NCBI GenBank assembly: GCA_048938105.1
Contig: JBHLMN010000013.1
Location: forward strand, 32,001-96,000
Direction of reading: 5' to 3'
Source: Promethearchaeota archaeon
Lineage (GTDB): Archaea > Asgardarchaeota > Heimdallarchaeia > Hodarchaeales > Hodarchaeaceae
Length of the DNA: 64,000 bases
The notes beneath the pieces are model-generated. The model made no database searches, was not told the DNA's origin, and saw nothing but the letters and a program-made list of their open reading frames with translations. A program made the translations under genes and the position numbers. Of the stretch, positions 20,875 to 45,944 are shown piece after piece. Positions within the stretch are counted from its first letter, which is position 1, and each line of letters begins with the position of its first letter.

Positions 20875-21222
20875 TTGGAATTCTTAAACGAGGTTCTACC
20901 AGCATTAATAGTTGCAATTATTGCAGTATTATGTTTGTATGGCTTCGCTAAATGGTTAAATATTGGGAGGTTCCAGACAACGAGATTAAAACAACAACTA
21001 TATCAAAGCGGAGAGACCATACTTCCTCGAAAGCGGCGTTACTTGGATCAAACATTTATTTGGATATCATACTTTTCTACAGCTCATGTTATATCATTTA
21101 TGTTTGCTACATTGTTGATTCTTTCTCTAGGTATAAGAATTAACATATTTTATCCTTTTGTGTATTTTGTTATAACTTCATATGCAATTTTCATGTTAGC
21201 AATAAAAACACCAGAGTCATAA
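20875..21222 (+). CDS. Small 3-TM membrane subunit of hydrogenase complex (NuoA-like)
   Basis: TM - loop with YQSGE (cf. NuoA YECG) - two TMs; first gene of operon. Confidence 0.6.
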   Translation: MEFLNEVLPALIVAIIAVLCLYGFAKWLNIGRFQTTRLKQQLYQSGETILPRKRRYLDQTFIWISYFSTAHVISFMFATLLILSLGIRINIFYPFVYFVITSYAIFMLAIKTPES

Positions 21223-21241
21223 ATTAAAGAGGTGTTATTAT

Positions 21242-21679: not shown

Positions 21680-21712
21680 GATATAAGTATTAATTATTTG
21701 GTGATTTTAGAA

Positions 21713-23467: not shown

Positions 23468-23482
23468 TGGAGAAATAAATGA

Positions 23483-24622: not shown

Positions 24623-24624
24623 AG

Positions 24625-25083
24625 ATGGTTAAAATACCTGATCTTTTTCCTGTGTTAAGTGAAGTTACTCGGAATTTAATAAATAAAACAGTTACAGTCG
24701 AATTTCCTTTTGAGAATGTAAAAGTTCCAGATGGATATAGAGGGGCACCAGAAGTCAATCCAAAGCTATGTATTGTTTGTAAAACTTGTGAAAAAATATG
24801 CCCAACACATTGCATTGAGATTATCCCTGTGAATCCCAGTGAAATTGCAGATTATTCTCAGGAGAAAGGAATTCCCTTTTGCTTTTCAATTAACCTTTCA
24901 CAATGTATGTTTTGTCAGGAATGTGAGAAATCTTGTCCAGTAGGTAAGAAAGGAGAATCTGCTATAAACCTTAATTCAAGTCGATGGTTAATGGCTAATT
25001 ATAAAATTGCAGATACAACTGAAAAAAAACTTGTTTATCAGAGACCTAAGAGAAAAAAGAAAATTAACGCTCAAGGAAGTTAA
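24625..25083 (+). CDS. NuoI/HycF-like 2[4Fe-4S] subunit
   Basis: YRG.P, CIVCKTCEKICP, CMFCQECEKSCP; ATG at 24625. Confidence 0.9.
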   Translation: MVKIPDLFPVLSEVTRNLINKTVTVEFPFENVKVPDGYRGAPEVNPKLCIVCKTCEKICPTHCIEIIPVNPSEIADYSQEKGIPFCFSINLSQCMFCQECEKSCPVGKKGESAINLNSSRWLMANYKIADTTEKKLVYQRPKRKKKINAQGS

Positions 25084-25088
25084 ATCCA

Positions 25089-25373
25089 ATGGCATCGGTC
25101 GAAGTAGTAATCTTAACTATATTTACAATAGCAATGGCGGCTGCAGCGCTTGAGGTGGAAAATATAACTCGTTCTATCCTTTGTTTAGCGCTTTCGTCTA
25201 TTGGAGTTGGTTCTATATTCTTTTTTGTTGGTGCTAGTTATGCTGCCGTTTTTGAATTCGTTCTTTATGCTGGTGTTTTAATAATTTTGTTTATTGTTGC
25301 AGCTAGTTTAACTGAAATCACCGAAAAAGAGACTATTGGAGAGGATCTCTTGATAAAGGAGATAAAATCATGA
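25089..25373 (+). CDS. NuoJ N-terminal-like membrane subunit
   Basis: 3 TMs, GASYAAVFEFVLYAGV. Confidence 0.75.
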   Translation: MASVEVVILTIFTIAMAAAALEVENITRSILCLALSSIGVGSIFFFVGASYAAVFEFVLYAGVLIILFIVAASLTEITEKETIGEDLLIKEIKS

Positions 25374-25642
25374 ATAATAAGGAAGTATTAGGAAGAATCG
25401 GATTTGCTATCATTGGCTTTATTTTGTTAGTTCTTATTGTTGATGCACAAGATAGTGGAGCTTGGGCAACCTTACAAACTGTGAAACCAAATTTAGCAAA
25501 CGAAAGGAGTTTGGGGTTATTATGGACCACTCTAGCAACCTCAACTATAATTCAAGGTTTTATGCTTTATGCAGCCCTTTTGGGTTCAAATTTACAGTTC
25601 TCGCCACCAACAAAAGAGAGAGAAAAAGAGGAGGAGTCTTAA
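25370..25642 (+). CDS. Small membrane subunit, probable NuoJ C-terminal half
   Basis: 2 TMs with SLGLLLW (cf. NuoJ 'lG..Lf'); overlaps neighbours. Confidence 0.55.
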   Translation: MNNKEVLGRIGFAIIGFILLVLIVDAQDSGAWATLQTVKPNLANERSLGLLWTTLATSTIIQGFMLYAALLGSNLQFSPPTKEREKEEES

Positions 25643-25974
25643 TGGCGTTTTCTGTAGATTCTTTCACTGATTTTGAAATTTTACTAGCTTTATCGTTTAT
25701 CATGCTCTTAATTGGTATTTATGGCCTAATTACAAAACGTTTAGCTATTAAAACAATAATGGCTTTAGAAATCCTTGTTACTGCACCTAATATAGCATTT
25801 ATTGCTTTTGGTTTTACTCAAAATACAAATATAGATCCACAGACACAGGCTTTTGTAATTATATCCTTATCAGTTGGGGCTGCCGTTATTGGTCTGGCTT
25901 TAGCTTTTCTTCGCAATTTGTACAAACACTTCGAAACAACTGAAGTGGACGCTTTTACAACACTTAAAGGATGA
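25642..25974 (+). CDS. NuoK/MrpC-like membrane subunit
   Basis: IGIYGL..KR.AIK.IMALEI, QAFVI..VGAA; ATG at 25642 after GGAGG. Confidence 0.85.
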   Translation: MAFSVDSFTDFEILLALSFIMLLIGIYGLITKRLAIKTIMALEILVTAPNIAFIAFGFTQNTNIDPQTQAFVIISLSVGAAVIGLALAFLRNLYKHFETTEVDAFTTLKG

Positions 25975-25975
25975 G

Positions 25976-27946
25976 GTGGCTAAAAATATGTCCAGCTGGC
26001 GAATAACAACTTTTGAAAACCTTATTGATGTTTCTCTTCAACCTTGGTTTTTAGTTTTCGCTATTCCCATTGTTGGAGCATTTTGTTCACCAATTGTAGG
26101 TAGATTTAATTCAACTCTACGTAATTTTTTTTCAATTGCAACAATCGGGATTTCAACCCTACTTGCAGGATATCTGGTTGCACTTGGAACTGCAGAAGAA
26201 CATATAATATTATTCGTTCCAACAATTATTAACAATTCAACTTTTGATTTTTTCTGTAATTCAATAAATCTTGACGCTTTAGGTGTCTTTATCGCTCTAA
26301 TTGCATCAGGATTGGGTTTCTTAATAGCAATTTTTTCATTAGAATATATGAAGGAAGACACAGCTCAAGGAAGATATTATTTTTTCCTCCAGCTTTTTAT
26401 TGGTGGAATGGTTCTTCTTGTTCTTGCTGGGGATTTGATATTCCTGTACTTTGGCTGGAAAATGGTAGGAGTGTGTAGTTATTTCCTAATTGGTCACTGG
26501 TTTCATAAACCTGAACCACAAGGTTCTTTATGTGCGAAGTCAGGAATGAAGGCCTTTCTTATGACACTTGTAGGTGATATTGCTCTTTTGATTGCACTTG
26601 GAATCCTATGGTTTGAATTAGACACAATTAATATTAAAATCATAACTCAAGCGTTTAATTCAGGAGTAACATCTGGACTCCAAACATTCGTTGCTTTACT
26701 CATTCTTCTTGGGGCAATTAGTAAATCAGCGCAATTTCCATTCATTACATGGTTAAGTAGTCCAAGAGATATTAATATTGATGCCATGCAGGGCCCTACA
26801 ACCGTCAGTGCACTCATACATGCCGCAACTATGGTAAAGGCGGGAGTTTATCTTATTTCAAGGTTTTATATGGTTTTTGCGCCAGTAAACATAACATTTT
26901 TTATCATGATCATTTCACTTATCGCTGCGATTACTGCATTGATAACTGCAGCTTCAGCTTTAGCATCCATTGATATTAAGCGTGTATTGGCTTATTCAAC
27001 TGTTAGTCAACTAGCCTATATGTTTATGGGCCTCTCTATTGGCTTTTTAGCTTATATTGAGAAACCAATAATTAGCATCGAAGGTTTTATGGGGACTCAG
27101 TTCCATCTATTGTCACATGCAATATTCAAAGCTCTTCTCTTCCTTTCAGCAGGAGCAATTATACATTCTTTAAATGAAGAAAGGAATATTAAATGTATGG
27201 GTGGATTAAAAGATGAATTACCAATTATTCATTGGACAACATTAATAGGAATATGTGCTTTAGCTGGTGTTCCATTCTTCTTTAACGGTGGATATAGTAA
27301 AGAGGCGATATTAGGCTCAATAGTTAACTTCGTTTTTAGTGGTGCAAAATTAGCTCTTTTTGGATGGATAATTTATGGGGCTGGTATGATAACAGTAATT
27401 TTAACATCGTTATACGCTTTTCGACTCTTTTTTCTAATTTTTTATGGCAAAAAGTCAGAAAGTTTGAAAGTAAACAAACCTGGCTTTATTATGCGGGGAG
27501 TGACATCCTTTTTAGCAATTCTTGTTGTTATAACTGGATTTATTGGGCCTATTCTTTTAAATACCCATTTTAGACCAATGTTTAAGAATTCAGAATATCA
27601 TTCACCATTAATATACATTCCTGATCCTTTACATCAGCCATTAGCTTTTATCAACATGGTTATTGTAATTGGATTGGTTATTATCGGATTTGGTCTTAGT
27701 TATCACATTTACTACAAGGGTCCAAGAACGATTATGCCTACTGTTCAGAAGAACTGGATTCTTAACGCTTTCCATACCATAATTATAGAGGGATTTTATC
27801 TAGATACGATTTACAACGAGCTCATAGACTTATTCATGTTTTTAAACTGGAAACTTCGAAAGTTACAGACTGGGGATCTCAATTTTAACATGGCAGGAGT
27901 AGGTATGATAGCTATTCTAATAATCATAACTTTATTGTTATTTTAA
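25976..27946 (+). CDS. NuoL/MrpA-like antiporter subunit
   Basis: SKSAQFP, AMQGPTTVSALIHAATMVKAGVYL, KRVLAYSTVSQLAYM, HAIFKALLFL. Confidence 0.92.
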   Translation: MAKNMSSWRITTFENLIDVSLQPWFLVFAIPIVGAFCSPIVGRFNSTLRNFFSIATIGISTLLAGYLVALGTAEEHIILFVPTIINNSTFDFFCNSINLDALGVFIALIASGLGFLIAIFSLEYMKEDTAQGRYYFFLQLFIGGMVLLVLAGDLIFLYFGWKMVGVCSYFLIGHWFHKPEPQGSLCAKSGMKAFLMTLVGDIALLIALGILWFELDTINIKIITQAFNSGVTSGLQTFVALLILLGAISKSAQFPFITWLSSPRDINIDAMQGPTTVSALIHAATMVKAGVYLISRFYMVFAPVNITFFIMIISLIAAITALITAASALASIDIKRVLAYSTVSQLAYMFMGLSIGFLAYIEKPIISIEGFMGTQFHLLSHAIFKALLFLSAGAIIHSLNEERNIKCMGGLKDELPIIHWTTLIGICALAGVPFFFNGGYSKEAILGSIVNFVFSGAKLALFGWIIYGAGMITVILTSLYAFRLFFLIFYGKKSESLKVNKPGFIMRGVTSFLAILVVITGFIGPILLNTHFRPMFKNSEYHSPLIYIPDPLHQPLAFINMVIVIGLVIIGFGLSYHIYYKGPRTIMPTVQKNWILNAFHTIIIEGFYLDTIYNELIDLFMFLNWKLRKLQTGDLNFNMAGVGMIAILIIITLLLF

Positions 27947-27958
27947 GGTGGTACAATC

Positions 27959-29491
27959 ATGATTGTGATCTTTGGACTAAATATTACATTAATTACTTTC
28001 GTTATTATCCCCCTTTTTTTTTCATTTTTTCTTATACTTTTAGAAAAGTTATTTTCATCCTCACGGTTAAAAAAGAATTTTATTCATATAATAGCATTAA
28101 TTGGGGCATTATTTGATTTACTTCTTGCTTTTCTTTTCTGTTCCGAGATCCTGAAGACTGGAAAAGAATTTTTTATAGATACTTCTTTCCTCGTTTTAAA
28201 AACTGATATCACATCTCTCTTTTTTATACTGATTTTTACAACAATTCATTTTACTGTATCCATTTATTGTGTCAATTTTATGGATCAATTCGATGACCTT
28301 GCTATTTTTTATGCGTTATTATTTGCATTAGTAACAGGTCTTAATTTGATAGTTATGGCTTCTGATTTTTTCACGCTTTTCGTAGCTTATGAGGGAATGG
28401 CATTATGTGCTTATTCCATGGTTGGATTTTACCGTAATCTAGAATCATCTGAAGCAGGATTTAAGTATCTGATGATGAGCTCAACTGGAAGCCTCTTATT
28501 ATTATTCGGCTTAGCCTTACTGTATGGAGTAGTAGGAAGCCTTAATTTTGCCTACTTGTCAACTGCCAACTTAGATAACAATTTGATGTTATCTTTAGCG
28601 ATTATCTTGATGGTTCTTGGATTTGGAATAACAGCTTCGATGTTCTTCTTAAATACTTGGCTTCCAGATGCTCATCCTGCCGCACCACCACCTGCTAGTG
28701 TCATTCTATCAGGAATTGTAGTTATCGCAGGGACATATGGATTATTAAGAACTTTCACTCTTCTTATAATTCCTTTAAACATCAATTCAGAACTATCATG
28801 GTCTAATCTGTTTATACTTATCGGTATTTTTACATCATTACAAGGGAATCTCTTTGTACTCATTCAATTCAAGAGAACTGATTCGCAGGCAAGAAATCTT
28901 AAACGGATATTAGCTTTTTCAACAATTTCACATATGGGCTACCTATTAACTGGAATAGGTACTGCTAATATCATGGGTATAAGCGGAGTTCTACTGCATG
29001 CTCTCAATCATGCAATTGCAAAAGGAATTATGTTTATGATTGCAGGTTATCTTATTTTTTCTGGAGGTTCGCATTGTCTCGATCATTATAAGGGATTAGG
29101 CCGTCAAGATCCAGTGATTGGAACCTGTTTAGTTATTGGTTTGTTTTCATTGGCCTCAATACCTCTTACTGGTGGTTTCTGGTCGAAATTACAGCTAATA
29201 CTTGGTCTTTTTGAAAATGGTTATCCCTTCGGAATATTCGCAGGTGTAAGTATGCTTGGATTAACTTTTTTCGCTGCAATAGGTTACCTTTGGATAATCA
29301 AATATATTGTTATGGATCATTCAGATATGGATTTAGAATATATTCATAATTTTAAGAAGATGAATCTAAGAAGGGGCGGATTTATGAAGTTAGCGATTAT
29401 CATATTGACATTAATTGTGGTTATTCTCGGATTATTACCAGGTCCATTCATAAATTTAACATTACAGGCTGCACATTATCTATTTGGATAA
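27959..29491 (+). CDS. NuoM/N / MrpD-like antiporter subunit
   Basis: SEAGFKY, WLPDAHPAAP, KRILAFSTISHMGY, NHAIAKG, P.TGGFWSK. Confidence 0.9.
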   Translation: MIVIFGLNITLITFVIIPLFFSFFLILLEKLFSSSRLKKNFIHIIALIGALFDLLLAFLFCSEILKTGKEFFIDTSFLVLKTDITSLFFILIFTTIHFTVSIYCVNFMDQFDDLAIFYALLFALVTGLNLIVMASDFFTLFVAYEGMALCAYSMVGFYRNLESSEAGFKYLMMSSTGSLLLLFGLALLYGVVGSLNFAYLSTANLDNNLMLSLAIILMVLGFGITASMFFLNTWLPDAHPAAPPPASVILSGIVVIAGTYGLLRTFTLLIIPLNINSELSWSNLFILIGIFTSLQGNLFVLIQFKRTDSQARNLKRILAFSTISHMGYLLTGIGTANIMGISGVLLHALNHAIAKGIMFMIAGYLIFSGGSHCLDHYKGLGRQDPVIGTCLVIGLFSLASIPLTGGFWSKLQLILGLFENGYPFGIFAGVSMLGLTFFAAIGYLWIIKYIVMDHSDMDLEYIHNFKKMNLRRGGFMKLAIIILTLIVVILGLLPGPFINLTLQAAHYLFG

Positions 29492-33492: not shown

Positions 33493-34755
33493 TTAAGGGA
33501 AAATTCCTCTAAGCTGGATAGCCCTAGCAACTCTATGAACTGCTAAAGCCATTGCTGCTGTACGAAAGTCCTGTACGTTATATTTCTCTCTCATTTGATC
33601 GACCTCTGCAAATGCTCTGACCAGAATTTTCTGTAGAGCTTCATTAACCTGATTTTCATCCCAAAAAAAATATTGAAGACCTTGTACCCACTCGAAGTAA
33701 GAAACGGTTACTCCACCAGCATTGGCTAGGATATCTGGTACGATAATAATACCTTTCTCATTGAGAATAGAATCCGCTAGTGGAGTGGTGGGGCCATTAG
33801 CTCCCTCTACTATAAGTTTTGCTTCAATTTCATCAGCATTTTCCCTAGTAATTTGATTTTGTGTTGCACATGGAGCAAGAATATCAACATCTAATGTTAA
33901 TAATTCTTTATTGGTAATTATTTCAGCGTTTGGGTATCCTTTAACTGTTCGATTAGAATTTTTTGCAATATAATCTAATATTTCTGGAATATTTAGTCCT
34001 TCAGGATTATAGCAACCACTAAAAGCATCATTCACGGCAATAATCTTTGCGCCATTTTGATATGCAATTTGAGCAAAATTAGATCCAACATTTCCAAATC
34101 CTTGAATAGCAACGGTAGCATTTTTAGATCTTTGCTTTTGTTGTTTAAGAGCTTCTTCCATTACAATATGAACACCTCTACCAGTAGCCTCTAGTCTACC
34201 TAGACTTCCTCCAAGTTCCAATGGTTTTCCTGTGACTATACCTAATTCAGTTTGACCTTGAATCATACTATAGGTATCCATTATCCACCCCATTATTTCG
34301 GGTGTTGTATTAATATCAGGAGCGGGAATATCTTTATCTGGGCCAATCATATCAATAACTGAATAAGTAAATCGACGAGTAACACGTTTTAACTCATTCA
34401 CACTAAGTTTGTACGGATCAACAACTACTCCACCTTTAGCCCCTCCATATGGAATATTTACGATAGCAGTTTTGTACGTCATCCATGAAGCTAATGCCTT
34501 TACTTCATCTAGATTAACATCTGCTGCATAACGAATGCCACCTTTGCAGGGACCACGACTAGCATTATGCTGAACACGGTATCCCTCAAAAACTTCAATA
34601 CTTTCATCGTCCATTGTAACTGGAAAAGTTGTAATTAAAGTCTTTGCAGGGTTTTCAAGGATTTTCTGAATATTCTTATCAAGATCAATTTTTTCTGCAG
34701 TATTTCGCAATTGTGTCAATGCATTTTTCCAAGGATTTGATTCATTTTCTTTCAA
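33493..34755 (-). CDS. gdhA: Glutamate dehydrogenase, NAD(P)-dependent
   Basis: RGPCKGGIRY, MTYK, GGAKGG, PAPD, EATGRG, QGFGNVG, EGANGP, NAGGVTVSYFEW. Confidence 0.96.
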   Translation of the reverse strand: MKENESNPWKNALTQLRNTAEKIDLDKNIQKILENPAKTLITTFPVTMDDESIEVFEGYRVQHNASRGPCKGGIRYAADVNLDEVKALASWMTYKTAIVNIPYGGAKGGVVVDPYKLSVNELKRVTRRFTYSVIDMIGPDKDIPAPDINTTPEIMGWIMDTYSMIQGQTELGIVTGKPLELGGSLGRLEATGRGVHIVMEEALKQQKQRSKNATVAIQGFGNVGSNFAQIAYQNGAKIIAVNDAFSGCYNPEGLNIPEILDYIAKNSNRTVKGYPNAEIITNKELLTLDVDILAPCATQNQITRENADEIEAKLIVEGANGPTTPLADSILNEKGIIIVPDILANAGGVTVSYFEWVQGLQYFFWDENQVNEALQKILVRAFAEVDQMREKYNVQDFRTAAMALAVHRVARAIQLRGIFP

Positions 34756-34965: not shown

Positions 34966-35733
34966 CTAAGAGAATAATGCTTGTATTTGAGTTAAAATTG
35001 ACTCTACTGCTTTCGTCCACAGTGTATATTCATGATAAGATAATTTATATCTCCATCCTACAAGGTTTGATTCCTCCCATTTGTCTTGAACTGAGCATCC
35101 TAAGCATGGGGGAATACTATAAATTGAAAAAAGGGGATTCTCCCAATTTGGAGGCATTTTTGAAAACTTTTTCATTTTGATAAGGGCTTTTCTAAAATTC
35201 ATTATCTCAGAAACCTGAAGATACCATTCAGGGGTAATACAATCGTCTAGTGGACCTTCAAACCAATCTAATTCAAGTATTCTCGCTTTTTGGTTCACCC
35301 ATATTAATAAAACAGTTACATACTGCCCTTCTCTCCCATCAGAATTTTGCCCGGCGATATTTACCCCAAGAGCAATACAGGGAATTTCTTCGGGGATTAA
35401 TGCTCTTTCCCATTGTTGAATGATTGACTTCAGACATCCAGGATCTACATCTTTATCATTTTCATAATTAGGGAGAGGAACTATTCTCCGAGGAAGCCAT
35501 CCAAGAGTCTTATCAATATAATTTTGGGAAAAGTTTCTACGACCCGATATGCTGAATTTTTTAAGTGATTTTGGTACTTCAAGAAATATTGGATGAAAAT
35601 TGTTTACTGGAAATTCACCTGGGGTCGTACTTATTAAACTTAAATCACTTGGAACTGTTATAGAGTTAAAATCAATTAAATTTCTTAGATTACCCCAAAT
35701 AAGAGAAGTCTCAATAGCTGAAAGACTAAACAT
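34966..35733 (-). CDS. Hypothetical protein
   Basis: 255-aa ATG ORF, no recognised motif. Confidence 0.55.
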   Translation of the reverse strand: MFSLSAIETSLIWGNLRNLIDFNSITVPSDLSLISTTPGEFPVNNFHPIFLEVPKSLKKFSISGRRNFSQNYIDKTLGWLPRRIVPLPNYENDKDVDPGCLKSIIQQWERALIPEEIPCIALGVNIAGQNSDGREGQYVTVLLIWVNQKARILELDWFEGPLDDCITPEWYLQVSEIMNFRKALIKMKKFSKMPPNWENPLFSIYSIPPCLGCSVQDKWEESNLVGWRYKLSYHEYTLWTKAVESILTQIQALFS

Positions 35734-35975: not shown

Positions 35976-37517
35976 CTAATGATATTCCTCCCATGTCCGA
36001 GGATAGGGATGATCTAATCCTGCAAGCTTGACACCTGTAATTGCCGCAGCATTAGTAGTTAAAGCCCTCAAATCTTCTCTTGAAAGATCTTTGATACTTT
36101 TATGCCCGGAAAGCATGGTAAATATTTTAATCTCATCTGTCATTGCCTTTAGGAAATTAGCTAGACGTTGTCCTGTTTTCTCAGGATCCAAACGAGCCCG
36201 AAGCTCAGGTTTGTTTGTCGTGATACCATACGGACAGATACCCTGATGACATGCCATACAAGCTCTACATCCCATGGCAATTTCTGCGGCTGTACCAATA
36301 CCAACAGCGTCAGCACCAAGCGCTAATGCTTTGAAAGCATCGACACCGCTGCGGATACCACCTAATGCAATAAGTTTGACTTTTCGATAGAGTCCCATAT
36401 CTTTTAGAGCCTGAACTGCAGGAGGAATACATGCAATAGTAGGAATTCCAGCATGTTGTGTTACAGACTCCGGAGATGCACCAGTTCCACCAACCATTCC
36501 GTCAATAGATATAGCGTCGACTCCTAGTTCTGCAGCTATCTTTACATCCTGATAGGGCCGACTAGGACCTAATTTTATCATAATCGGTACTTTATAATCA
36601 GTAATGTCTTTGATGATCTCTATTTGCTTTTTAAGATCTTCTGGGCCTATTGCATCATAATATCTTGGGGGAGAAAGGGCATCTGTACCAATAGGAATCC
36701 CCCTCACTCTAGCAACTTCTTCTACAACCTTTTTCCCAAGAAGGTGCCCACCCATTCCAGGTTTAGCACCTTGACCGATTTTAACTTCGATAGCATCTGC
36801 ATTATGTAAAAAATCAAGATTAACTCCCCAACGTCCAGTTGACCACTGTACAGTCAAATATCCACCGTTACATAAATGAGGATTACTTTTCCCAGAAGTT
36901 CTAAGTTCTTCAAGTGTATTAAATCCGTGGACAAGAGGATATTCTTCATGAATAGCTCCACCTTCACCTGTATTAGCAATAGTTCCCATTTTATAAGCTG
37001 CTATCGCTAAAGACATCTTTGCTTCTTTTGACAAAGCACCAAAGGACATTGCACCAAAAACTATAGGGATTTTTAATTTAATGGGATGTTTTACTGTCTC
37101 TTCACCAATTATTACACTGACATCACAATCCTCACGATATTTATCAAGAGGAGGTGGAGAGGCTAATTGAGAGGGAATAATAACAAGATCATCAAAGTGT
37201 GGGATAATTCGAGCAGTTCCAAAACCCCTTAACAGATATTTACCAGTCTGGGCCTGGTGATGAATATGTTCAATTGTTTGAAAAGTCCACAGAGATCGTG
37301 AGAAATATTCCGGCTCAGCAGGTTTAATGTGAGTTGCATTATTTGGACAAAACTCCATGCAGATCCTGCAACCAACACACGCCATATCATTAACTATTTG
37401 AACCCTATTATCATCATCTTTTTCATATACTTTATGTGGACATACTTCTACACAAGTACCACAATGAGTACATCTCTCATAATCGATATTTACGCAATAT
37501 GCTCCAAGAATTGGCAA
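35976..37517 (-). CDS. Glutamate synthase FMN-binding subunit (GltB2) with N-terminal 2[4Fe-4S] ferredoxin
   Basis: CTHCGTCVEVCP, CVGCRICMEFCP; AMSFGALS, TGEGG, EVKIGQGAKPGMGGHL, DGMVGGTG, GCRACMACHQGICP. Confidence 0.92.
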   Translation of the reverse strand: MPILGAYCVNIDYERCTHCGTCVEVCPHKVYEKDDDNRVQIVNDMACVGCRICMEFCPNNATHIKPAEPEYFSRSLWTFQTIEHIHHQAQTGKYLLRGFGTARIIPHFDDLVIIPSQLASPPPLDKYREDCDVSVIIGEETVKHPIKLKIPIVFGAMSFGALSKEAKMSLAIAAYKMGTIANTGEGGAIHEEYPLVHGFNTLEELRTSGKSNPHLCNGGYLTVQWSTGRWGVNLDFLHNADAIEVKIGQGAKPGMGGHLLGKKVVEEVARVRGIPIGTDALSPPRYYDAIGPEDLKKQIEIIKDITDYKVPIMIKLGPSRPYQDVKIAAELGVDAISIDGMVGGTGASPESVTQHAGIPTIACIPPAVQALKDMGLYRKVKLIALGGIRSGVDAFKALALGADAVGIGTAAEIAMGCRACMACHQGICPYGITTNKPELRARLDPEKTGQRLANFLKAMTDEIKIFTMLSGHKSIKDLSREDLRALTTNAAAITGVKLAGLDHPYPRTWEEYH

Positions 37518-37538
37518 GATATCTTACCCTCGTTTTTT

Positions 37539-38225
37539 TTAGCTCTTTTCGGAATAAAATGGTTTATCTGTTTCTGCAATGATTTTTGTAAATTCTTCTG
37601 GTTTTGCATCGACTTTATAGGTAGAGAAGAATTGCTGAAGAAAATCCATATCATCAGATGAAAGATCTTCGATCTTAGTATTGTTTCCAAGGCTTTTCCA
37701 AGAACCTCTGGTGAAAATTCGACCTGAAATCAGAAAATTACCTACTCTTTCACCAGCGTTTCCTAATAAAATGATATTCCCCGCAAGCATATAGGTTCCA
37801 AGATCATTTCCTACGTCTTTTTCTACAAAAATTGAAGCACCTTTATTCATTGTCCCTAGAAAATCTCCACAAGTTCCCATAATGACTACTTTTCCTCCAT
37901 AGCAATAAGGGGCTGCACAATAACCAGCATTACCTTTGACAATAATTTCTCCATCAATCATGTTATCTCCAATGTATTTCCCAACACTTCCTTCAATGAT
38001 TAATTTAGCTCCCGAATTCAGCATACCAACGTAATCACCTACAGAAGTCTTAATAATAACTGTACCTTCTCTTAATCCCGAAGCAATACCATTTAATAGA
38101 TCACAATTAGTAACAGTTACTGTACCATTCTCCTTAAGTATACTCTTTATTTCTTGATTGATATTTTTTAATTTTAATCCTATTAAATCGGTTGGACTAA
38201 CAGCTACTACATCCATTACATTCAC
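37539..38225 (-). CDS. Glutamate synthase GXGXG subunit (GltB3/FwdC-like beta-helix)
   Basis: Repeated G.VG.Y.G..M.GG.I.V.GNAG units. Confidence 0.88.
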   Translation of the reverse strand: MNVMDVVAVSPTDLIGLKLKNINQEIKSILKENGTVTVTNCDLLNGIASGLREGTVIIKTSVGDYVGMLNSGAKLIIEGSVGKYIGDNMIDGEIIVKGNAGYCAAPYCYGGKVVIMGTCGDFLGTMNKGASIFVEKDVGNDLGTYMLAGNIILLGNAGERVGNFLISGRIFTRGSWKSLGNNTKIEDLSSDDMDFLQQFFSTYKVDAKPEEFTKIIAETDKPFYSEKS

Positions 38226-39378
38226 CTCGTATTTTTATTGTTCCCTCCTTCTTTTTTTGGTTAAATAAACCCATAAACCGACTTTTAGTTTCCTCAAGTC
38301 TATTTTCATCAGTGAGTGATTCGAGTGAATAGATTAACAGTGAATCAAAGGCTTGCGTCCGTTTTCTACGTTGCTTTTCAGAACAGGCAGCTGAAATTGC
38401 TACAAAATCGGCTTCCTCAGTACTTTCAATCAATCCCAAATTTAAGCAATTATTTAGGAAGCTGCGTCCCCTTGCATTCCAAGCAATTAAACTTGCAAAT
38501 CCTGCTTGGGAACCAGTCTGACCAATTGAAATATCAGCCATATTAGCAACGTAATCTGTACACCGTGCACAACCTTTTCTTAGATACTTTTGTTCTTCCT
38601 CTAGTGGGAATTTTTCATTTTTTCCTGTGTTAAGCTTGATTTCAAGGTATTCACCTTTAGTTGAACTGATGATACTTATAATTTCAGCAGGCGATACACC
38701 CAGATGGTTTGATAAATCTTCAAGAAGAGCAGTTTCATAATATCCTGAGCAGAATAACCCAATCACAATACCAATAGACTTTCGTAGAATCGATAAACCT
38801 TCTATTTCTGATTCAGTAACTCTTCTGATGGCCTGAGCGACACACGGAGGTCCAACAATAGCAATTTGATGAAAGTCATTTTTTAAAACCTCGTGATATA
38901 AGTTTGATAAAATAGGATTCCACAATTTCTGATTACCAGAAACCTCGTAAAGTTCTTCAATTGATCTAACAACTTTTGAATATGGTTTTCCATCCCATCT
39001 ATTCACATCCATAATTAGAGCAGCATCAATAAACCCACTCATTAAACCTGCTGAAAGGAGATCAATAATGATTTCATTTATGTGGTTACCTGTGATATTA
39101 CGTGTTGTTTTTACTGATATAACATCATATATTTTTCTTTCTTCCCACTCCTTTAGACGAGGACAACTTTCCACACACATACCCTCGCAAAATGAACAAG
39201 TATCAATGTCAACAACCGACAAACCAACAGTTTTTATCTTGGGAATAAAAACAGGATGTTGCATTTCTGGTTTAAACTCTAATCGTCCACGGGAGCAAGC
39301 AGCGACACACATGCCACAACCAGCACATCGATCAACATTCCAAACTTCATTTTCTAATTTCAGTTGTTTAGACAACAT
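38197..39378 (-). CDS. FrhB/FdhB-family (F420-interacting) subunit with N-terminal ferredoxin
   Basis: CAGCGMCVAAC, CSFCEGMCVESCPR; VGPPCV, IGLFCS, GCARCTDY...ADISIG. Confidence 0.85.
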   Translation of the reverse strand: MLSKQLKLENEVWNVDRCAGCGMCVAACSRGRLEFKPEMQHPVFIPKIKTVGLSVVDIDTCSFCEGMCVESCPRLKEWEERKIYDVISVKTTRNITGNHINEIIIDLLSAGLMSGFIDAALIMDVNRWDGKPYSKVVRSIEELYEVSGNQKLWNPILSNLYHEVLKNDFHQIAIVGPPCVAQAIRRVTESEIEGLSILRKSIGIVIGLFCSGYYETALLEDLSNHLGVSPAEIISIISSTKGEYLEIKLNTGKNEKFPLEEEQKYLRKGCARCTDYVANMADISIGQTGSQAGFASLIAWNARGRSFLNNCLNLGLIESTEEADFVAISAACSEKQRRKRTQAFDSLLIYSLESLTDENRLEETKSRFMGLFNQKKKEGTIKIRGECNGCSSC

Positions 39379-42300
39379 GAATTTTACCTCTCACACGTCT
39401 TGTTTCTACATATAAGGATTCAAGAGGGCCTAGAGATTTGATTAATTCTGTAAATTCTGTTATTAGTTGAGCAAAACGATTTCCTTCACTAGCTGATATC
39501 CATTCAAGAGTCAGACGCCGCGAATCAATTCCTATTGAAGAGAGAGCTTTCTTCATTTTCTCAATGCGATCTTTTGCGTATAAATTACCTGAGATATAGT
39601 GACAATCCCCAGGGTGACAACCACTGACAAAAACACCATCAGCACCTTCCAGAAAAGCCCATAATAAGAAGAAGGGATCTATTCGTCCACTACACAATAC
39701 TCTGATAATGCGAATGTTGGAAGGGTATTGAAAACGTGAAATTCCAGCAAGGTCAGCTCCAGCATAAGAACACCAATTACAACAAAAACCGACAATTTTG
39801 GGTTCATCATTAGGAAAGGATCCATGGAGGGCTTCAGAAATTTGGTTTAAAATCTGGAGATCAGTGAAACCTTGCATTGTTATTGCTTTTGCAGGACAAG
39901 AAACGGCGCACACTCCACATCCTTTACAAATGGCTTCATTTACATGAGAAATCAGATCTATTGGATGAAAGCTTATTGCACCATATGGACATACGCTACC
40001 ACAGGTACCACATCCTACACAAAGTGCTGGATCAACTGTAGCAATATTAGTTTCTGCAACAATTTGCCCTAATCGCATAGGAATTGAAGCACGAGCAGCA
40101 GCTCCAGAAGCTTGACTGATTGTATCACTCACATTCTTCGGTGAATGGGCAATCCCACAAACATAAATCCCATCAGTGGCAAAGTCTAGTGGACGGAGTT
40201 TTACATGAGCTTCTTGAAAGAATCCATCTGTTCCCAAGGGAACTTTGAATAATTGGCTTAATTCCTTAGCACCAGATGAATTCACAAGTGGAGTAGCTAA
40301 TAATATTAAATCAGCTGAATAAGAATAATCTTCTCCTGTAAATATGTTATGGAATGATATAGTGATTCCAGTTTCACTAATATTCACATTGGGTTTGTTT
40401 TCCTCATTATAGCGAATGAAATATACTTGTTGAAGTTTACGTACCTCACTATAATATTCTTCAGCACTTTTTTCTACTAATCGAATATCTTGATGTAAAA
40501 TACGAATGTGAGCATTAGGATATCTTTTACTTAATTTTTTCACAGTTTTTAAAATAGCTGCGCATCCAATTCTGCAACAATACGTACGGTTGCTTCCTGC
40601 TTTCTCTTTCGATCCCACGCAGCTAATTAGAAATATATTGACAACATCTTTCGGTAATTTCTTCTTCTTAAGTGCTTGTTCAAATTCTAGTAAAGTCATT
40701 ATGCTTTTGTGGCGAGAATAGCCATAATATCCTACTGGTTTGAATTCTTCACCACCAGTTGCAATAATAACGGTTCCAACCTTGATTTTTTTGCTATCAT
40801 CACCTGAGAGGGTAATTTCAAAATTACCGACATATCCCCCAACATTTTCAACAGTTGTACTAAGATATACATGAATTTTTGGATTATTGGATATATTATT
40901 AATCTTTTCTTTCAGAATATCTCCAGTGAATTGATCTGTAGGAAATAATGTCGTCATTGTACGTAAAAGGCCTCCCAAGTACTTCTCCTTTTCCACTAAA
41001 TGAACATCAAACCCCATATTTGCAAGATCGTCAGCAGCAGTTAGTCCTGCAATTCCTCCACCGATAATTAGTGTTTCTGGAATCACTTTGAGTTGTTTTC
41101 TTACAGATGGTTCCAATAAACGGGCTTTTGCCACTGCCATAGCTGTAAGATCTTTAGCTTTATCTGTAGCATTTTCCCACTCGTGTGAATGAACCCAGGA
41201 ACATTGATCGCGGATATTTGCCATCTCAAAGAGAGATTCATTCAATCCTGCTTCTTTGCAGGTTGTTCGAAATAGGGATTCATGCGTTCTCGGAGAACAT
41301 GATGCAACAACAATTCGGTTTAGATTATAATCCTGAATAGCCTTTTTTATCAGAGTTTGAGTAGCTTCTGAACAGGTAAAAAGGTTATTTGTGGCGAATT
41401 CAACTTTGGGCAGTCTTTGTGCAAATTTGGTAACACTCTCCACATCAAGATAACCACCAATATTGTGACCACAGTGACACACAAAAACTCCAATTCGAGG
41501 TTCCTGATCAATTATATCTTGTAATTTGTTAGATATATCTTCAGCTACTTCTTTATAAACTTTAAATTTATTTTTATTTATTACAGCCAAAGCCTTCGCA
41601 GCAGCTCCACTTGCCTGAGAAACCGAATCTGGAATGTCTCTTGGACCCGCACTACAACCACAAAGATAGATGCCATCAACTGTGGTTTCTAATGGTGCGG
41701 AGACGGGATCTTTTTCCCTAAAGAAGCCATATTCATCAAGTTCTACTCCTAGAATTTCCGATAATTTCTTATTGCCTGTTGGGGCTTTAATGGCTGAGGA
41801 TAAAACCACTAAATCCGCCTCTAACTCCGCAGCCTTCCTTGAGATAATGTCTTCATAGAATATGATTAAATTATTATTATTTGTTTCATTGATTTCTGCT
41901 GGACGACTTCTTATGAAGTTGATCCCAATTTCATGTTTTCCTCGCTGATAGTATTCCTCAAATCCTTTTCCATATGCTCGCAAATCCATATAGAAGATAT
42001 AGGGTGTTATTTCAGGATGATGCTCTTTAGCAATCATTGCTTGTTTTGTTGCCCACATACAGCATACACGAGAACAATACGGTTGATTTATTGTAATATC
42101 GCGAGAACCTACACATTGAATCCATGCAATGGTTCTAGGGATTTTCTTATCTGAAAGGCGGCGAACTTGACTCTCTGTCGGTCCTGAGGCTGATAATAAG
42201 CGTTCAAATTGCATTCCTGTTAAAATATTAGGATAAATACCATATCCTAAATTATATTTCACAGTTGGGTCAAATTCTTCAAAACCTGTGGCTAATATAA

Positions 42301-42892
42301 TTGCAGATACAATAATTTCAAGCATTTCAGGCTTCTGATCACGATTGATAGCTCCAGGAGCACAAACTTTCTCGCATTTACCACAATTTTTGCAAAGATC
42401 TTTATCAATCGTTGCAACATTAGGTACAGCTTGAGCAAAATATCTATAGATAGCTCTACGGGTACCTAAATTATGATCAAATTCATTAGGAACTTTTACT
42501 GGACATACCTCAAAACAAGCTCCACATCCTGTACACTTTTCAGTATCAACATAACGAGGGTGCTTTTTTATAGTAACTTCAAAGTATCCTTTAGATCCAT
42601 TAACTTTTTCGATTGTAGAATATGTTATAAGTTCAATGTTTTGATTACGAACAACTTCGACCATTTTGGGAGCTTCAATGCATATCGCACAATCATTGGT
42701 AGGGAGAGTTTTATCAAGTTTTGCCATCGCTCCTCCAATTGACGGTGCATGGTCTACTAGGTAGACTTGGATCATCTGATTAGCAATATCGAGTGCTGCC
42801 TGCATACCAGCTATCCCCCCTCCAATAACTAGAACCCCGTTAACCGTCTCTATTTTCTCTAAGCTTGAGACAGAATTTAATTTCTCTTGCAT
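39368..42892 (-). CDS. hdrA: HdrA-like flavoprotein (two FAD modules) fused to C-terminal MvhD
   Basis: Two GGGIAG Rossmann motifs, LDKT.PTNDCAICI, CSRVCC, CHCG.NI, CSP..HE, NIRDQCSWVH; MvhD FCCNWCSYAGAD...CSGR...GCHPGDCHY. Confidence 0.92.
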   Translation of the reverse strand: MQEKLNSVSSLEKIETVNGVLVIGGGIAGMQAALDIANQMIQVYLVDHAPSIGGAMAKLDKTLPTNDCAICIEAPKMVEVVRNQNIELITYSTIEKVNGSKGYFEVTIKKHPRYVDTEKCTGCGACFEVCPVKVPNEFDHNLGTRRAIYRYFAQAVPNVATIDKDLCKNCGKCEKVCAPGAINRDQKPEMLEIIVSAIILATGFEEFDPTVKYNLGYGIYPNILTGMQFERLLSASGPTESQVRRLSDKKIPRTIAWIQCVGSRDITINQPYCSRVCCMWATKQAMIAKEHHPEITPYIFYMDLRAYGKGFEEYYQRGKHEIGINFIRSRPAEINETNNNNLIIFYEDIISRKAAELEADLVVLSSAIKAPTGNKKLSEILGVELDEYGFFREKDPVSAPLETTVDGIYLCGCSAGPRDIPDSVSQASGAAAKALAVINKNKFKVYKEVAEDISNKLQDIIDQEPRIGVFVCHCGHNIGGYLDVESVTKFAQRLPKVEFATNNLFTCSEATQTLIKKAIQDYNLNRIVVASCSPRTHESLFRTTCKEAGLNESLFEMANIRDQCSWVHSHEWENATDKAKDLTAMAVAKARLLEPSVRKQLKVIPETLIIGGGIAGLTAADDLANMGFDVHLVEKEKYLGGLLRTMTTLFPTDQFTGDILKEKINNISNNPKIHVYLSTTVENVGGYVGNFEITLSGDDSKKIKVGTVIIATGGEEFKPVGYYGYSRHKSIMTLLEFEQALKKKKLPKDVVNIFLISCVGSKEKAGSNRTYCCRIGCAAILKTVKKLSKRYPNAHIRILHQDIRLVEKSAEEYYSEVRKLQQVYFIRYNEENKPNVNISETGITISFHNIFTGEDYSYSADLILLATPLVNSSGAKELSQLFKVPLGTDGFFQEAHVKLRPLDFATDGIYVCGIAHSPKNVSDTISQASGAAARASIPMRLGQIVAETNIATVDPALCVGCGTCGSVCPYGAISFHPIDLISHVNEAICKGCGVCAVSCPAKAITMQGFTDLQILNQISEALHGSFPNDEPKIVGFCCNWCSYAGADLAGISRFQYPSNIRIIRVLCSGRIDPFFLLWAFLEGADGVFVSGCHPGDCHYISGNLYAKDRIEKMKKALSSIGIDSRRLTLEWISASEGNRFAQLITEFTELIKSLGPLESLYVETRRVRGKIHVV

Positions 42893-42947: not shown

Positions 42948-43355
42948 TTAATCCACCTTTTTTCCGTCTCTTATGATGTCAATGACATGTTTTACCACAT
43001 CTCGGGGTTCAAAACTGTTTTCGGTTATTTTCACTCCCCTTTTATGCCGTATGATAGGAAAAACATTTGAAAAATTCTGATAAATGGGTATAATCTCTAA
43101 TCCTGAATTAAAAGCTAAATTGACTTCTTCACACATGTCTAAGATGTTTCGTGCTTCTTTTGAACAAAAAAATATACAGACATCAATCAGGTTATTTGAG
43201 AAATTTAGACACCTACAAAGGCTGTCTTTACTCCTATCAGTCTCACACAAAACAATTCTGTCAAAATCTGAATATTTTTTGATTTCTTCAATGAAATCAG
43301 AAACTCTCAAAGATTGCTTATCATGTTCATTATAACTAATAAATAGATTTAACAT
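42948..43355 (-). CDS. Stand-alone TIR-domain protein
   Basis: LFISY (box 1), IFFCS, MCEEVNLA (putative catalytic Glu), IIPIY. Confidence 0.72.
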   Translation of the reverse strand: MLNLFISYNEHDKQSLRVSDFIEEIKKYSDFDRIVLCETDRSKDSLCRCLNFSNNLIDVCIFFCSKEARNILDMCEEVNLAFNSGLEIIPIYQNFSNVFPIIRHKRGVKITENSFEPRDVVKHVIDIIRDGKKVD

Positions 43356-43367
43356 AATCTTTACTTC

Positions 43368-44576
43368 CTAAGATTCATCCTCTAAAGCGTCTAAGACTCT
43401 CTGTTGAGCAATTTCCTTGGCTATTATTCGTGGAATAAGGCCAGAATCGATTGTTCTTTCACTAATTAATTTAGCGTTCTTCTTGATTTTTGACTCAATT
43501 AATACAAAAGCTTCTGCTGCATCCATTTTTCTATATTCGGCAAAAGAGCCAATAATCCCTCCAGCATTGACTAGAATATCAGGGAGGATGATTACACCTT
43601 TTTCAAACAATTTTCTTTCAGCGATAGTGGTTGAACTATTATTAGCTCCTTCAACAATGAGCTTTGTTTTAAGTTGAGTAATTGTATCTTCATTTATTAC
43701 ACAATCATACGCGCAGGGAATAAATACATCACATTCTATTTCATAGATCTCGTCTCTAGGTAAGATCATACCCTCTCTCGAACGTTTTAATGAACGTTCT
43801 TTATTCATGGCATGTGCAAATTTTCTAATCTTTTTAATATCTATACCATCTGAATTATAGAGAGTTCCCCAGTTATCATTTACAGCGATTATATTCGCTC
43901 CTTTGCTATTCAAATATTTTGCCGTTCCATAACCTACCTTACCAAAACCTTGGATTACTACGCGTGTCTCCGATAAACAATTAGGGCATTGAATTGAATC
44001 ATGTAAAACTTGAAGACTTGTTTCAAGAGCCACTCCAATTCCGAATCCAGTCATATCATTCTTATAAGATATTCCTCCAAGGCTAGTTGGTTTTCCAGTG
44101 GCTCCTAGTAGATCACCAACGGTTTCTACAAAAGCTGCAATTTCTTTTTCACCAACATTTATATCTGGACCAGCTATATATTTATTAGGAATAAAAGGTG
44201 CTATTTTATCAGCAAAAGCTTTGATATACTTGATTGTATCAATTTCAAACGGATCTGCACGAATACCAGCTTGAGCTCCCCCGAACGGAATTTCTGCCAG
44301 AGCGCATTTCCAAGTCATTAATCTAGCAAGTTTAAAAATCCCTAAAGGAGTAATTGTAGGAGAAATTCTAATTCCCCCTTTCCCTGGCCCTAATGTAGTG
44401 TTATCAATTATTAAATACCCTTGCATTTGTATATCAGGGTCATAAACTTGAACCACTCTTTCAGGCCCCCACTTATCTAGAAAAGCTGAAATATTAACAT
44501 GATTTAAGGCTTCAAGAATATTTTCACTGCTTAGTACTGTTTTTTCATCCTGAGAAGACATTCTTGACATATCCAT
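43368..44576 (-). CDS. Glu/Leu/Phe/Val dehydrogenase paralog with catalytic Lys replaced (probable pseudo-enzyme)
   Basis: GPGKGGIR, MTWK, QGFGKVG, EGAN, NAGG present, but GGAKGG reads GGAQAG; start likely ATG 44576. Confidence 0.8.
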   Translation of the reverse strand: MDMSRMSSQDEKTVLSSENILEALNHVNISAFLDKWGPERVVQVYDPDIQMQGYLIIDNTTLGPGKGGIRISPTITPLGIFKLARLMTWKCALAEIPFGGAQAGIRADPFEIDTIKYIKAFADKIAPFIPNKYIAGPDINVGEKEIAAFVETVGDLLGATGKPTSLGGISYKNDMTGFGIGVALETSLQVLHDSIQCPNCLSETRVVIQGFGKVGYGTAKYLNSKGANIIAVNDNWGTLYNSDGIDIKKIRKFAHAMNKERSLKRSREGMILPRDEIYEIECDVFIPCAYDCVINEDTITQLKTKLIVEGANNSSTTIAERKLFEKGVIILPDILVNAGGIIGSFAEYRKMDAAEAFVLIESKIKKNAKLISERTIDSGLIPRIIAKEIAQQRVLDALEDES

Positions 44577-44876
44577 AAAATATAAGCCATCTAGATACAA
44601 GAATAATGAAAAAACAGAAATATAAAACATTGATGTACAAAATTAAGAAAAAAACACTAATAACTGAGAACAAAAAAAGAAATAATGTATTAAAAACGAC
44701 ATTTTCTTTTTATTTTTGTATTCAATGTGTTATAATATTATAACAGAAAAAATACTTCTATTCGTAATTTTGACATATTTGATATTATAAAAAGAAATTT
44801 GATAACAAAATGATTACATTTATATTTATCAATTTTTACATAAGGAGTTGAAAAAATTAGGATAGTATTTTATTTC

Positions 44877-45944
44877 ATGAAAAAGATTCTTGAAGATAAT
44901 TTGAACTTAAAAATTTTAGAACTAATATGTGCAGGTGAGGGGGTCTCTGTCAATACTACTGAACTATCAAAAGTTCTAGGTAAGCATCGAAATACCATAA
45001 AAAATAATATTGCTAAGCTATTCGAACACGAAATCATAGAAAAGCCCTTTTATCCTTTCTCTTATCTTTTTAAGGAATGGCCTCTTCTTGTCATTGAAAA
45101 AGCAAATTTTCAAAGAAACTTGAAAACAAATGTTTTTATTGAAAAGGATCCAGTTATATGGGCAGCTTTTTTTGTTAAGGAAAATGAATACAACACATTT
45201 CTAATTGAATTTCATAAGGATTTATATTCTTATCAAAATTGGAAAGAAAGTATAATCAAAGAGGCAAAGATTACTCTTAAGGAGGAAACCTATCCATCTG
45301 AGGCAATTTTTTTAACAATGAGAAATTTAATTAAGTATGAGCCAACAATCGCAGTGCAAATATTAGAAACTAATTATAAAAACCATCATCATCAAGAGCT
45401 AAATGGCTTAAAGCTTAGTGATTTCAGGCTTGAACTTATTAAACTTCTTTTAACTGGGAAATGTATTAGAACTAATGAGTATCACATTAGTGATATGCTT
45501 GATGTCCATCGTCGCACTGTTAAACGTCGAATTGAAAAATTATTAGAACATAGAATAATTGATAGTCCAGTTTGTTGCTTCCCAAGAGTTTGGGTGCCAC
45601 CAAAATATTTTCTGGTCTTTTCTTTATTTGAAATAAAGAATAAAAATGAGTTGGTATTGAGAACATTAAGGAATGATCCCCATGTTCCAATTCTTTTCAG
45701 AGCTGTTGTAGATAAATTTAATCTTGCTCTCTTTAGCAATTTTTATAAAATGGAAGATTTTTTGGAATGGGCGGAAGAATATGATCAAAGATTTCCTGGA
45801 TGCATTGGAGCAGTCAGGAATACATTTCTTTCTCCCTCCATGACTTTCTCTATTGCCCATAATTATGTTACTCTCACATTTATTCAAAATATTGCTAATC
45901 GTTTACGAGGTAAGGTATTTGTTGAAATGATGAAAGAAAGCTAA
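44877..45944 (+). CDS. Transcriptional regulator with two tandem HTH + Lrp/AsnC-like modules (paralog of 16672)
   Basis: LNLK.L.L.CAGEGVS.N, KHRNT, FKE.PLLV, IRTNE, FPRV.VPP, RNDPHVP, LSP.MTF shared; divergent from pseudo-GDH/HdrA operon. Confidence 0.7.
   Translation: MKKILEDNLNLKILELICAGEGVSVNTTELSKVLGKHRNTIKNNIAKLFEHEIIEKPFYPFSYLFKEWPLLVIEKANFQRNLKTNVFIEKDPVIWAAFFVKENEYNTFLIEFHKDLYSYQNWKESIIKEAKITLKEETYPSEAIFLTMRNLIKYEPTIAVQILETNYKNHHHQELNGLKLSDFRLELIKLLLTGKCIRTNEYHISDMLDVHRRTVKRRIEKLLEHRIIDSPVCCFPRVWVPPKYFLVFSLFEIKNKNELVLRTLRNDPHVPILFRAVVDKFNLALFSNFYKMEDFLEWAEEYDQRFPGCIGAVRNTFLSPSMTFSIAHNYVTLTFIQNIANRLRGKVFVEMMKES

Follow-up and report, generated by a model that had tools for sequence, protein, structure and literature searches.

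A conserved archaeal gene cluster that may wire a GltB2/GltB3 glutamate arm to HdrA through MvhD

Introduction

Hubs of HdrA and MvhD with exchangeable arms are a known kind of enzyme. Structures of Fdh-Hdr and Elp-Hdr show that the flavin adenine dinucleotide (FAD) of each HdrA protomer is fed by the arm of its partner (PMC12350162). HdrA proteins with two TrxR domains have already been described, as type II (PMC12054007), and the partners of HdrA need not be co-located with hdrBC (PMC6085437). Here we analyse an operon, all parts of which are known singly, in a 64,000-nucleotide (nt) stretch of a Hodarchaeales genome (positions 32,001 to 96,000 of contig JBHLMN010000013.1, assembly GCA_048938105.1; the window). 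It encodes an HdrA-MvhD fusion, an FrhB-like subunit, and the glutamate synthase (GltS) subunits GltB3 and GltB2. We found no paper describing this gene set in the openly searchable literature; subscription papers lie outside that scope.

A preliminary description of the window had proposed a bifurcating glutamate/2-oxoglutarate oxidoreductase linked to F420 or ferredoxin and lacking HdrBC. Its conserved association, missing GltB1, intact sites and neighbouring glutamate dehydrogenase (GDH) have held up, while the F420 site and the lack of HdrBC as a trait have not. Judging from sequence, we consider it likely that the cluster is a glutamine-independent glutamate redox arm wired through MvhD.

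Results

A conserved MvhD–FrhB-like–GltB3–GltB2 unit

The analysed genome comprises 5.85 Mb (99% complete, 7% contaminated), and the nearest homologues, at 85-95% identity, are labelled Promethearchaeota, Hodarchaeota or Hermodarchaeota. Four tightly coupled open reading frames (ORFs) lie on the minus strand where the preliminary description had put them, and our domain calls agree with its own (Table 1). The overlaps it had reported measure 11 nt (hdrA with the frhB-like gene) and 29 nt (frhB-like gene with gltB3), and gltB2, said to follow within about 20 nt, begins after a gap of 21 nt. Domain searches of the hdrA-mvhD product returned two FAD/TrxR domains, four 4Fe-4S motifs and a C-terminal FlpD/MvhD domain. 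The role of GltB3, which has one invariant cysteine (C108), is probably structural. As described, the window has no HdrB/C or MvhA/G: no gene with a CCG domain (HdrB/D) occurs on the whole contig, whose sole NiFe large subunit is of group 4 type, and mvhA/G are not on the contig. A promoter and terminator scan, of a kind not suited to archaea, gave results at chance level, and a codon-bias proxy was discarded, having only three reference genes and ranking 2-oxoacid oxidoreductases low.

We surveyed 126 loci holding an FrhB-like gene (from genomes, metagenomes and assemblies, many of them kin or near-copies) and found the core of MvhD, FrhB-like subunit, GltB3 and GltB2 recurring in hosts from the Asgard archaea, Bathyarchaeia, Methanomassiliicoccales and Anaerolineae. 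The absence of a glutamine amidotransferase, noted earlier for the window operon, holds for 126 of 126 loci. Where loci were long enough to judge, gltB3 directly follows the FrhB-like gene (111 of 111) and gltB2 comes in order after gltB3 (90 of 90); all 86 loci assessed for MvhD have that domain no more than 2 kb upstream of the FrhB-like gene. Because the order is kept in 126 loci, the association is not due to chance; the genes upstream of MvhD vary, and therefore the invariant unit is MvhD–FrhB-like–GltB3–GltB2.

Archaeal loci have a two-FAD HdrA upstream, fused or split, and often hdrC-hdrB or hdrD in the cluster (L008-L010, L065, L067, L068, L070, L088, L101, L143-L145 and L171), several distinct archaeal clades having hdrCB inserted among the operon genes. 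At L167:5084-6529 the hdrCB position is taken by an HdrC-like ferredoxin fused to a GltD-like NAD(P) flavoprotein. In Anaerolineae the upstream genes encode NuoE and NuoF, the latter fused to GltD in some cases, together with an Fe-S protein of the NuoG N-terminal kind and an HdrA-MvhD with a single FAD; these bacteria retain the arm and the second HdrA FAD domain (D2), the first (D1) being swapped for an unrelated NuoE/F/G-type module, a second bifurcation-type one, and their HdrA is without the inserted ferredoxin and some HA4 ligands. HdrA is not an invariant part of the association: Anaerolineae lose the bifurcating half, and four loci have polyferredoxin-MvhD alone, with no flavin hub in the operon.

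Two further observations come from these loci. Anaerolineae carry a 170-180 aa protein after gltB2 (L017:11579-12091 and 31 similar loci), for which Atlas suggests a nucleotidyltransferase-like fold, and a similar domain begins the polyferredoxin-MvhD variants. In Heimdallarchaeota bin272 a run of Ns (L010:9896-10023) joins gltB2 to an unrelated transporter gene; this is probably an assembly join, owing to which the upstream context of that locus was left out of use.

An intact glutamate site without a glutaminase

GltB2 carries two 4Fe-4S motifs, a barrel for flavin mononucleotide (FMN) and a four-Cys C-terminal cluster motif, and its best fold matches are GltS. The expectation of a 2-oxoglutarate/FMN site was borne out at every ligand checked: K252, R272, T345, G346, Q249, M157 and K315, corresponding respectively to Synechocystis K972, R992, T1065, G1066, Q969, M875 and K1034, are invariant in 33 of 33 copies. 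In GltS, the loop-4 YSIE segment serves coupling to the glutaminase. In the cluster GltB2s its Glu is kept in 26 of 33 copies but the preceding YSI has drifted, whereas two GltB1-coupled controls keep the segment. Near the site there are also family-specific changes (M255 and a 20-residue insertion). The family GltB2s form one long-branch clade against three GltB1-coupled GltB2s (99 SH-aLRT) in a quick tree with only these three outgroups, from which we draw no order of gains, losses or transfers; some members are automatically annotated as MgsC or glutamate synthase.

GltB1 is absent from the cluster in every locus (0 of 126), as the preliminary description had it for the window. Since PF00310 misses the GltB1 fusion present in the window itself (see below), absence was re-tested with two protein queries. 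With all three queries GltB1 went undetected in 24 of 30 host genomes, mostly incomplete assemblies, one a single-contig Bathyarchaeia chromosome; the six that have it carry it next to a separate GltB2 in every case. The cluster copy is the sole strong GltB2 in 24 of 30 hosts. From GltS chemistry, a synthase site without a glutaminase can only exchange glutamate with 2-oxoglutarate and free amine (PMC8097209).

The FrhB-like subunit is probably an Fe-S adaptor

The FrhB-like subunit has the FpoF/Fsr-N type of fold (TM score 0.73 to 8RJA_E), with two N-terminal 4Fe-4S motifs and four core cysteines; all twelve cluster cysteines are kept, and most copies have a C-terminal CxxC tail. The helix cap binding the FAD pyrophosphate is among the most conserved parts of the FrhB family (PMC3591093). 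In the window copy this motif, QDGGIVT, has become HINEIII, and the complete motif (QxGGxxT) is absent in 67 of 67 family members and in 32 locus copies, the GG cap being visible in 33 of 35 outgroup rows. GG is mostly replaced by N-D/E or G-D/N, usually with an acidic residue at the second glycine; one locus copy (L013) retains GG but nothing more of the motif. In the Lys-Tyr loop the Lys is replaced by Gln; the Tyr is lost in the window copy and kept in many bacterial copies. These changes make loss of FAD likely. Because the FAD motif is lost and cofG is undetected in 25 of 31 host genomes, the subunit is probably a flavin-free Fe-S adaptor, and on these two grounds we reject the earlier proposal that it binds F420. 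The label 'F420 hydrogenase beta' can thus mark a protein that is probably such an adaptor.

The window's own genome does have cofG and cofD, and elsewhere it holds another frhB with an intact motif. Directly after gltB2 lies a remnant of a second intact-motif frhB, missed in the preliminary description; the window is short of about 1.0 kb that close relatives have, both flanks align, and an assembly error is a possible cause. Those relatives have an intact-motif frhB at this place and also have cofG, so that the use of F420 may be optional in this lineage and depend on an frhB lost here or dropped by the assembly.

The HdrA-MvhD hub

The bifurcating-FAD signature of the first HdrA domain is intact. 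Placed by the 126-residue offset of the 5ODC match, D1 keeps E230, K283, C260/273/277/278 and C71, of which we take E230 to correspond to E356, the four cysteines to the HA4 ligands and C71 to C197 of that structure. K283 aligns with K409, the FAD N5 contact (PMC6405883). D2 is without an inserted ferredoxin or a C197 equivalent, and its cysteine pattern is shifted. C71 is the equivalent of the cysteine donated to the partner's shuttle cluster, which the D2-side protomer lacks. The whole protein resembles an HdrA dimer fused into one chain and left with a single mobile arm; its second protomer is made up of the N-terminal-type domain and D2, followed by the C-terminal ferredoxin and MvhD. Because in the solved complexes the arm of one protomer feeds the other's FAD, we regard D1 as the candidate site of bifurcation. 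Since D1 is kept in archaea or swapped for the NuoF module, the glutamate arm would sit at the mid-potential substrate position in both architectures. The four [2Fe-2S] cysteines of MvhD are invariant in 33 copies. Complex prediction of MvhD with the FrhB-like subunit, run with alignments, scored 0.02 and is given no weight either way.

The preliminary description had treated the lack of HdrBC as a defining trait. We reject this, as the absence is local to this cluster: hdrCB or hdrD lies in the cluster in many archaeal relatives, and a check for other hdrBC genes found two hdrC-hdrB pairs elsewhere in this genome, one in a complete mvhG-mvhA-hdrA-hdrC-hdrB operon (C50:67353-73578) and one on C6 together with several hdrA. 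The genome also carries comA, genes for F420 synthesis and no fewer than six hdrA besides the one in the window (C6:35400-48300, C6:384200-392300, C41:225586-227985, C50:67353-73578).

Neighbouring genes and a second glutamate synthase

The expectation of a GDH beside the cluster was confirmed, both in the window and in 13 of 37 long loci, which have one within 10 kb; GDH was found in 27 of 31 hosts. A second, divergent GDH in the window, whose catalytic Lys has become Gln (Q120), is a probable regulatory or sensing pseudo-enzyme. This paralogue is kept at the head of the archaeal cluster and may be a glutamate sensor or regulatory subunit. The conserved 255-aa protein had no family match in domain searches and only chance-level Atlas matches. 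The two double helix-turn-helix (HTH) paralogues (the one in Table 1 and another at 16672-17709, plus strand) are 45% identical, the second lying near the malic enzyme. Some other loci have alanine aminotransferase, alanine dehydrogenase and Lrp/AsnC regulators nearby. Both CxxC motifs are present in the group 4 hydrogenase (21698-23467), the malic enzyme adjoins the cluster in one relative (L005), and the genome has eight strong 2-oxoacid:ferredoxin oxidoreductase alpha matches.

The check for another gltB1 turned up a separate synthase cluster in the window itself, overlooked in the preliminary description. Its GltB1-GltB3 fusion has 844 aa with a putative catalytic Cys after a 30-residue leader, and its GltB2 keeps loop-4 YSVE and falls outside the cluster GltB2 family. 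This is likely the genome's glutamine-dependent enzyme; the other class II amidotransferase matches resemble AsnB, GlmS and a YafJ-like protein. The layout is unusual, the third gene being an Fe-S protein with a degenerate GltB2 barrel, and in three Chloroflexota genomes a close GltB1 homologue (56-59%) lies beside two GltB2-like stretches in one long frame.

Table 1. Features of the window, with the domains of the HdrA-MvhD protein (res, residues of that protein)
Feature	Position	Strand	Evidence or remarks
Tandem HdrA fused to MvhD, type II, two TrxR domains, 1174 aa	39368-42892	-	domain matches
HdrA D1: FAD domain with inserted ferredoxin	res 14-445
HdrA N-terminal-type Fe-S domain	res 463-590
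HdrA D2: FAD domain without inserted ferredoxin	res 600-945		followed by C-terminal ferredoxin
MvhD part of the fusion	res 1030-1157
MvhD domain, [2Fe-2S] electron port	39422..39805	-	PF02662 E 4e-54
FrhB-like subunit, 393 aa	38197-39378	-	FrhB_FdhB_C E 4e-28; no FrhB_FdhB_N match
GltB3, GXGXG beta-helix subunit, 228 aa	37539-38225	-	PF01493, E 5e-13; separate gene
Ferredoxin-GltB2, 513 aa	35976-37517	-	N-terminal ferredoxin and Glu_synthase E 2e-112
Remnant of second intact-motif frhB, last 41 codons	35846..35968	-	73% identity, E 8e-16 to C-terminus of L005 paralogue
Conserved 255-aa protein travelling with archaeal cluster	34966..35733	-	L005, L006, L008-L010, L087, L101, L125
GDH, catalytic motifs intact	33493..34755	-	GdhA_Arch E 1e-157; GGAKGG kept
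TIR-like small ORF between divergent GDH and hdrA	42948..43355	-	TIR_2 E 0.09 only; kept in L005, L007, L008, L087
Divergent GDH paralogue, catalytic Lys to Gln	43368..44630	-	GGAQAG in window, L005, L008; aligned to solved GDHs
Double-HTH regulator, divergent	44877..45944	+	HTH matches; beside cluster in L007-L009, L087, L101, L125
Malic enzyme, then group 4 NiFe hydrogenase cluster	18897-29491	+	fused NuoC/D-like large subunit, antiporter-like subunits
Separate glutamate synthase cluster: Fe-S/degenerate GltB2, GltB2, GltB1-GltB3 fusion	5443-10799	-	sequence matches

Discussion

Proposed mechanism and energetics

In our reading GltB2, GltB3 and the FrhB-like subunit would form a glutamine-independent glutamate/2-oxoglutarate plus ammonium oxidoreductase arm, occupying the MvhD port that is otherwise used by MvhAG, FdhAB or ElpAB (hydrogenase or formate dehydrogenase). 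With its site intact, the GltB2 FMN would exchange a hydride with glutamate or 2-iminoglutarate, and single electrons would pass from the C-terminal cluster of GltB2 to its ferredoxin domain, through the three clusters of the FrhB-like subunit, and on to the HdrA mobile arm and MvhD; this route is suggested by the invariant gene linkage and the wiring of Fdh-Hdr and Elp-Hdr. The oxidative run seems most likely here: two glutamates would feed the D1 FAD, from which one electron would leave through the inserted ferredoxin domain for ferredoxin, while the other would reach a disulfide through HdrC-HdrB, encoded in the cluster in relatives and presumably acting in trans here. Reduced ferredoxin could then supply the group 4 hydrogenase, to which ferredoxin would be the link. 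We infer complex formation, substrate, direction, bifurcation and the hydrogenase link alike, and to the whole statement (glutamate arm, oxidative direction, and bifurcation to ferredoxin and disulfide) we give slightly less than an even chance.

Cultured Hodarchaeales are syntrophic peptide fermenters (10.1101/2025.02.26.640444). Oxidation is favoured by such relatives, by the separate anabolic synthase, by GDH in most hosts, and by catabolic neighbours and Lrp-type regulators. The glutamate couple would lie at -230 to -300 mV at the concentrations we assumed, and at about -360 mV with micromolar ammonium, its textbook E0' being near -130 mV. Set against a mean of -280 mV for disulfide (-140 mV) and ferredoxin (-420 mV) (PMC5861303), this range means that oxidative bifurcation would be possible only near equilibrium. 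Drawing off 2-oxoglutarate helps the oxidative direction, with which the genome's 2-oxoacid:ferredoxin oxidoreductases fit.

Several points weigh against this reading. Oxidative bifurcation would be thermodynamically marginal, as in the NADH-fed Flx-Hdr. GltS normally works reductively, and for the NuoF type a coupled reaction is plausible in the reductive sense alone, since glutamate could hardly reduce both NAD and ferredoxin; direction may thus differ by lineage. The Methanomassiliicoccales and window copies are without hdrCB and an intact frhB in cis, and the four polyferredoxin-MvhD loci are without any flavin hub. The cluster is present in just 6 of 21 same-genus genomes searched, and is therefore accessory.

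Alternative explanations

The same wiring might run reductively: confurcation of reduced ferredoxin with a thiol (or with NADH in the NuoF type) would turn 2-oxoglutarate and free ammonia into glutamate at no cost in ATP. The couple might instead serve as the high-potential sink, as MetFV does for the two-FAD HdrA of acetogens; together with the neighbouring GDH, a glutamate-mediated transhydrogenase cycle would form. GltS sites are normally reductive (PMC8097209), the couple at micromolar ammonium lies near the NADH/ferredoxin mean, the cluster holds the only strong GltB2 of most hosts, and MetFV-HdrABC-MvhD is a precedent (PMC5861303, PMC9430772). At the same time, six genomes, this one included, retain a separate synthase with GltB1, most hosts have GDH, peptide fermenters have surplus nitrogen, and no recurring glnA, amtB or PII was seen among the clustered downstream genes (no dedicated search was made). 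We regard this explanation as unlikely, though a serious one. Somewhat less probable again is that HdrA-MvhD does not bifurcate and only wires glutamate to one carrier. That carrier could be ferredoxin; it could be NAD(P), reached by way of NuoF/GltD; or it could be F420, with either the second FrhB or, as in HdrA2, HdrA itself as the exit. The polyferredoxin-MvhD variants, the pared-down HdrA of Anaerolineae, the absence of HdrBC in cis in several lineages, and the intact-motif FrhB and cofG of close relatives would all suit such a device; the fully canonical archaeal D1 and the hdrCB interleaved in several separate archaeal clades would not.

The substrate could also be another amine or imine, such as methylamine as with MgsC, N-methylglutamate being made or removed. 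GltB2 homologues do include MgsC, some family members are annotated accordingly, and M255 and the insertion near the site are peculiar to the family. We nevertheless think this quite improbable: an MgsA-like amidotransferase occurs in 0 of 126 loci, the 2-oxoglutarate ligands are all invariant, GDH genes recur beside the cluster, and the Mgs reaction is redox-neutral and has no need of HdrA. The idea that GltB1 is supplied in trans draws on the GltB1-GltB3 fusion 28 kb away and on the Fsr-N layout that the FrhB-like subunit shares with FGltS(I)-alpha (PMC3448663). We reject it as the general case, GltB1 being undetected in most hosts including the single-contig Bathyarchaeia; the GltB1 in the window already has partners, being joined to a GltB3 and accompanied by GltB2s of its own cluster, and the scarcity of cofG, the loss of the FAD motif and the 86 of 86 MvhD linkage also speak against it.

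Implications

On the preferred reading of a glutamate arm feeding HdrA, this might be the first electron-bifurcating amino-acid dehydrogenase, a GltS half docking on two unrelated hubs, HdrA in archaea and NuoF/Bfu-type in Chloroflexota; we rate this as tentative and somewhat less likely than not. Cultured Asgard archaea live by fermenting peptides in syntrophy, and glutamate oxidation is the energetic bottleneck of that way of life, as the NAD(P)H that GDH yields is poorly suited to making H2. If the proposal is true, glutamate could serve peptide-fermenting Asgard archaea as a source of reduced ferredoxin, or anaerobes could fix ammonia ATP-free by confurcation; an amino acid would join the short list of mid-potential bifurcation substrates (H2, formate, F420H2, NAD(P)H), and the split GltB2/GltB3 clade, now annotated as glutamate synthase or MgsC, would gain a function. 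The three-gene arm is small enough for expression and assay.

Comparison with known systems

In FlxABCD-HdrABC (Ramos 2015, cited in PMC9430772) a donor near the NADH potential reportedly feeds HdrABC via an MvhD homologue, with similarly narrow energetics; here the donor would be glutamate at FMN, not NADH at FlxA. Unlike the N-methylglutamate synthase MgsABC, the cluster has no amidotransferase subunit akin to MgsA. GltS alpha and ferredoxin-dependent GltS (1OFD, 1EA0; PMC8097209) share the FMN barrel, the 2-oxoglutarate ligands and the beta-helix domain, but the cluster has no amidotransferase, a four-Cys rather than three-Cys cluster motif, its own ferredoxin and a drifted loop 4. In the putative FGltS(I/II) and the FrhB10 clusters of ANME (PMC3448663; 10.1101/2021.09.25.461819) an FrhB-family gene likewise stands beside split GltS subunits with an Fsr-N-like layout; our cluster differs in having neither the FAD motif nor GltB1, in hosts mostly without cofG, and in its fixed MvhD/HdrA link. 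MetFV-HdrABC-MvhD of Moorella and Sporomusa (PMC5861303, PMC9430772) likewise pairs MvhD and a two-FAD HdrA with an Fe-S adaptor, and its FMN enzyme also works on C=N bonds, whereas our operon has no MetF/MetV and no NAD-binding HdrA insertion, and keeps the inserted ferredoxin in D1. In FdhAB-MvhD-HdrABC (7BKB) and ElpABC-HdrABC (8RVU; PMC12350162), as proposed here, an FrhB-fold subunit joins the substrate module to HdrA via the C-terminal ferredoxin and an MvhD-type [2Fe-2S] cluster, and the canonical bifurcating FAD is common to both and to the cluster. In our cluster the substrate module is GltB2/GltB3, the ferredoxin of the FrhB-like subunit is N-terminal rather than C-terminal and its FAD motif gone, and HdrA is a fused tandem with MvhD attached.

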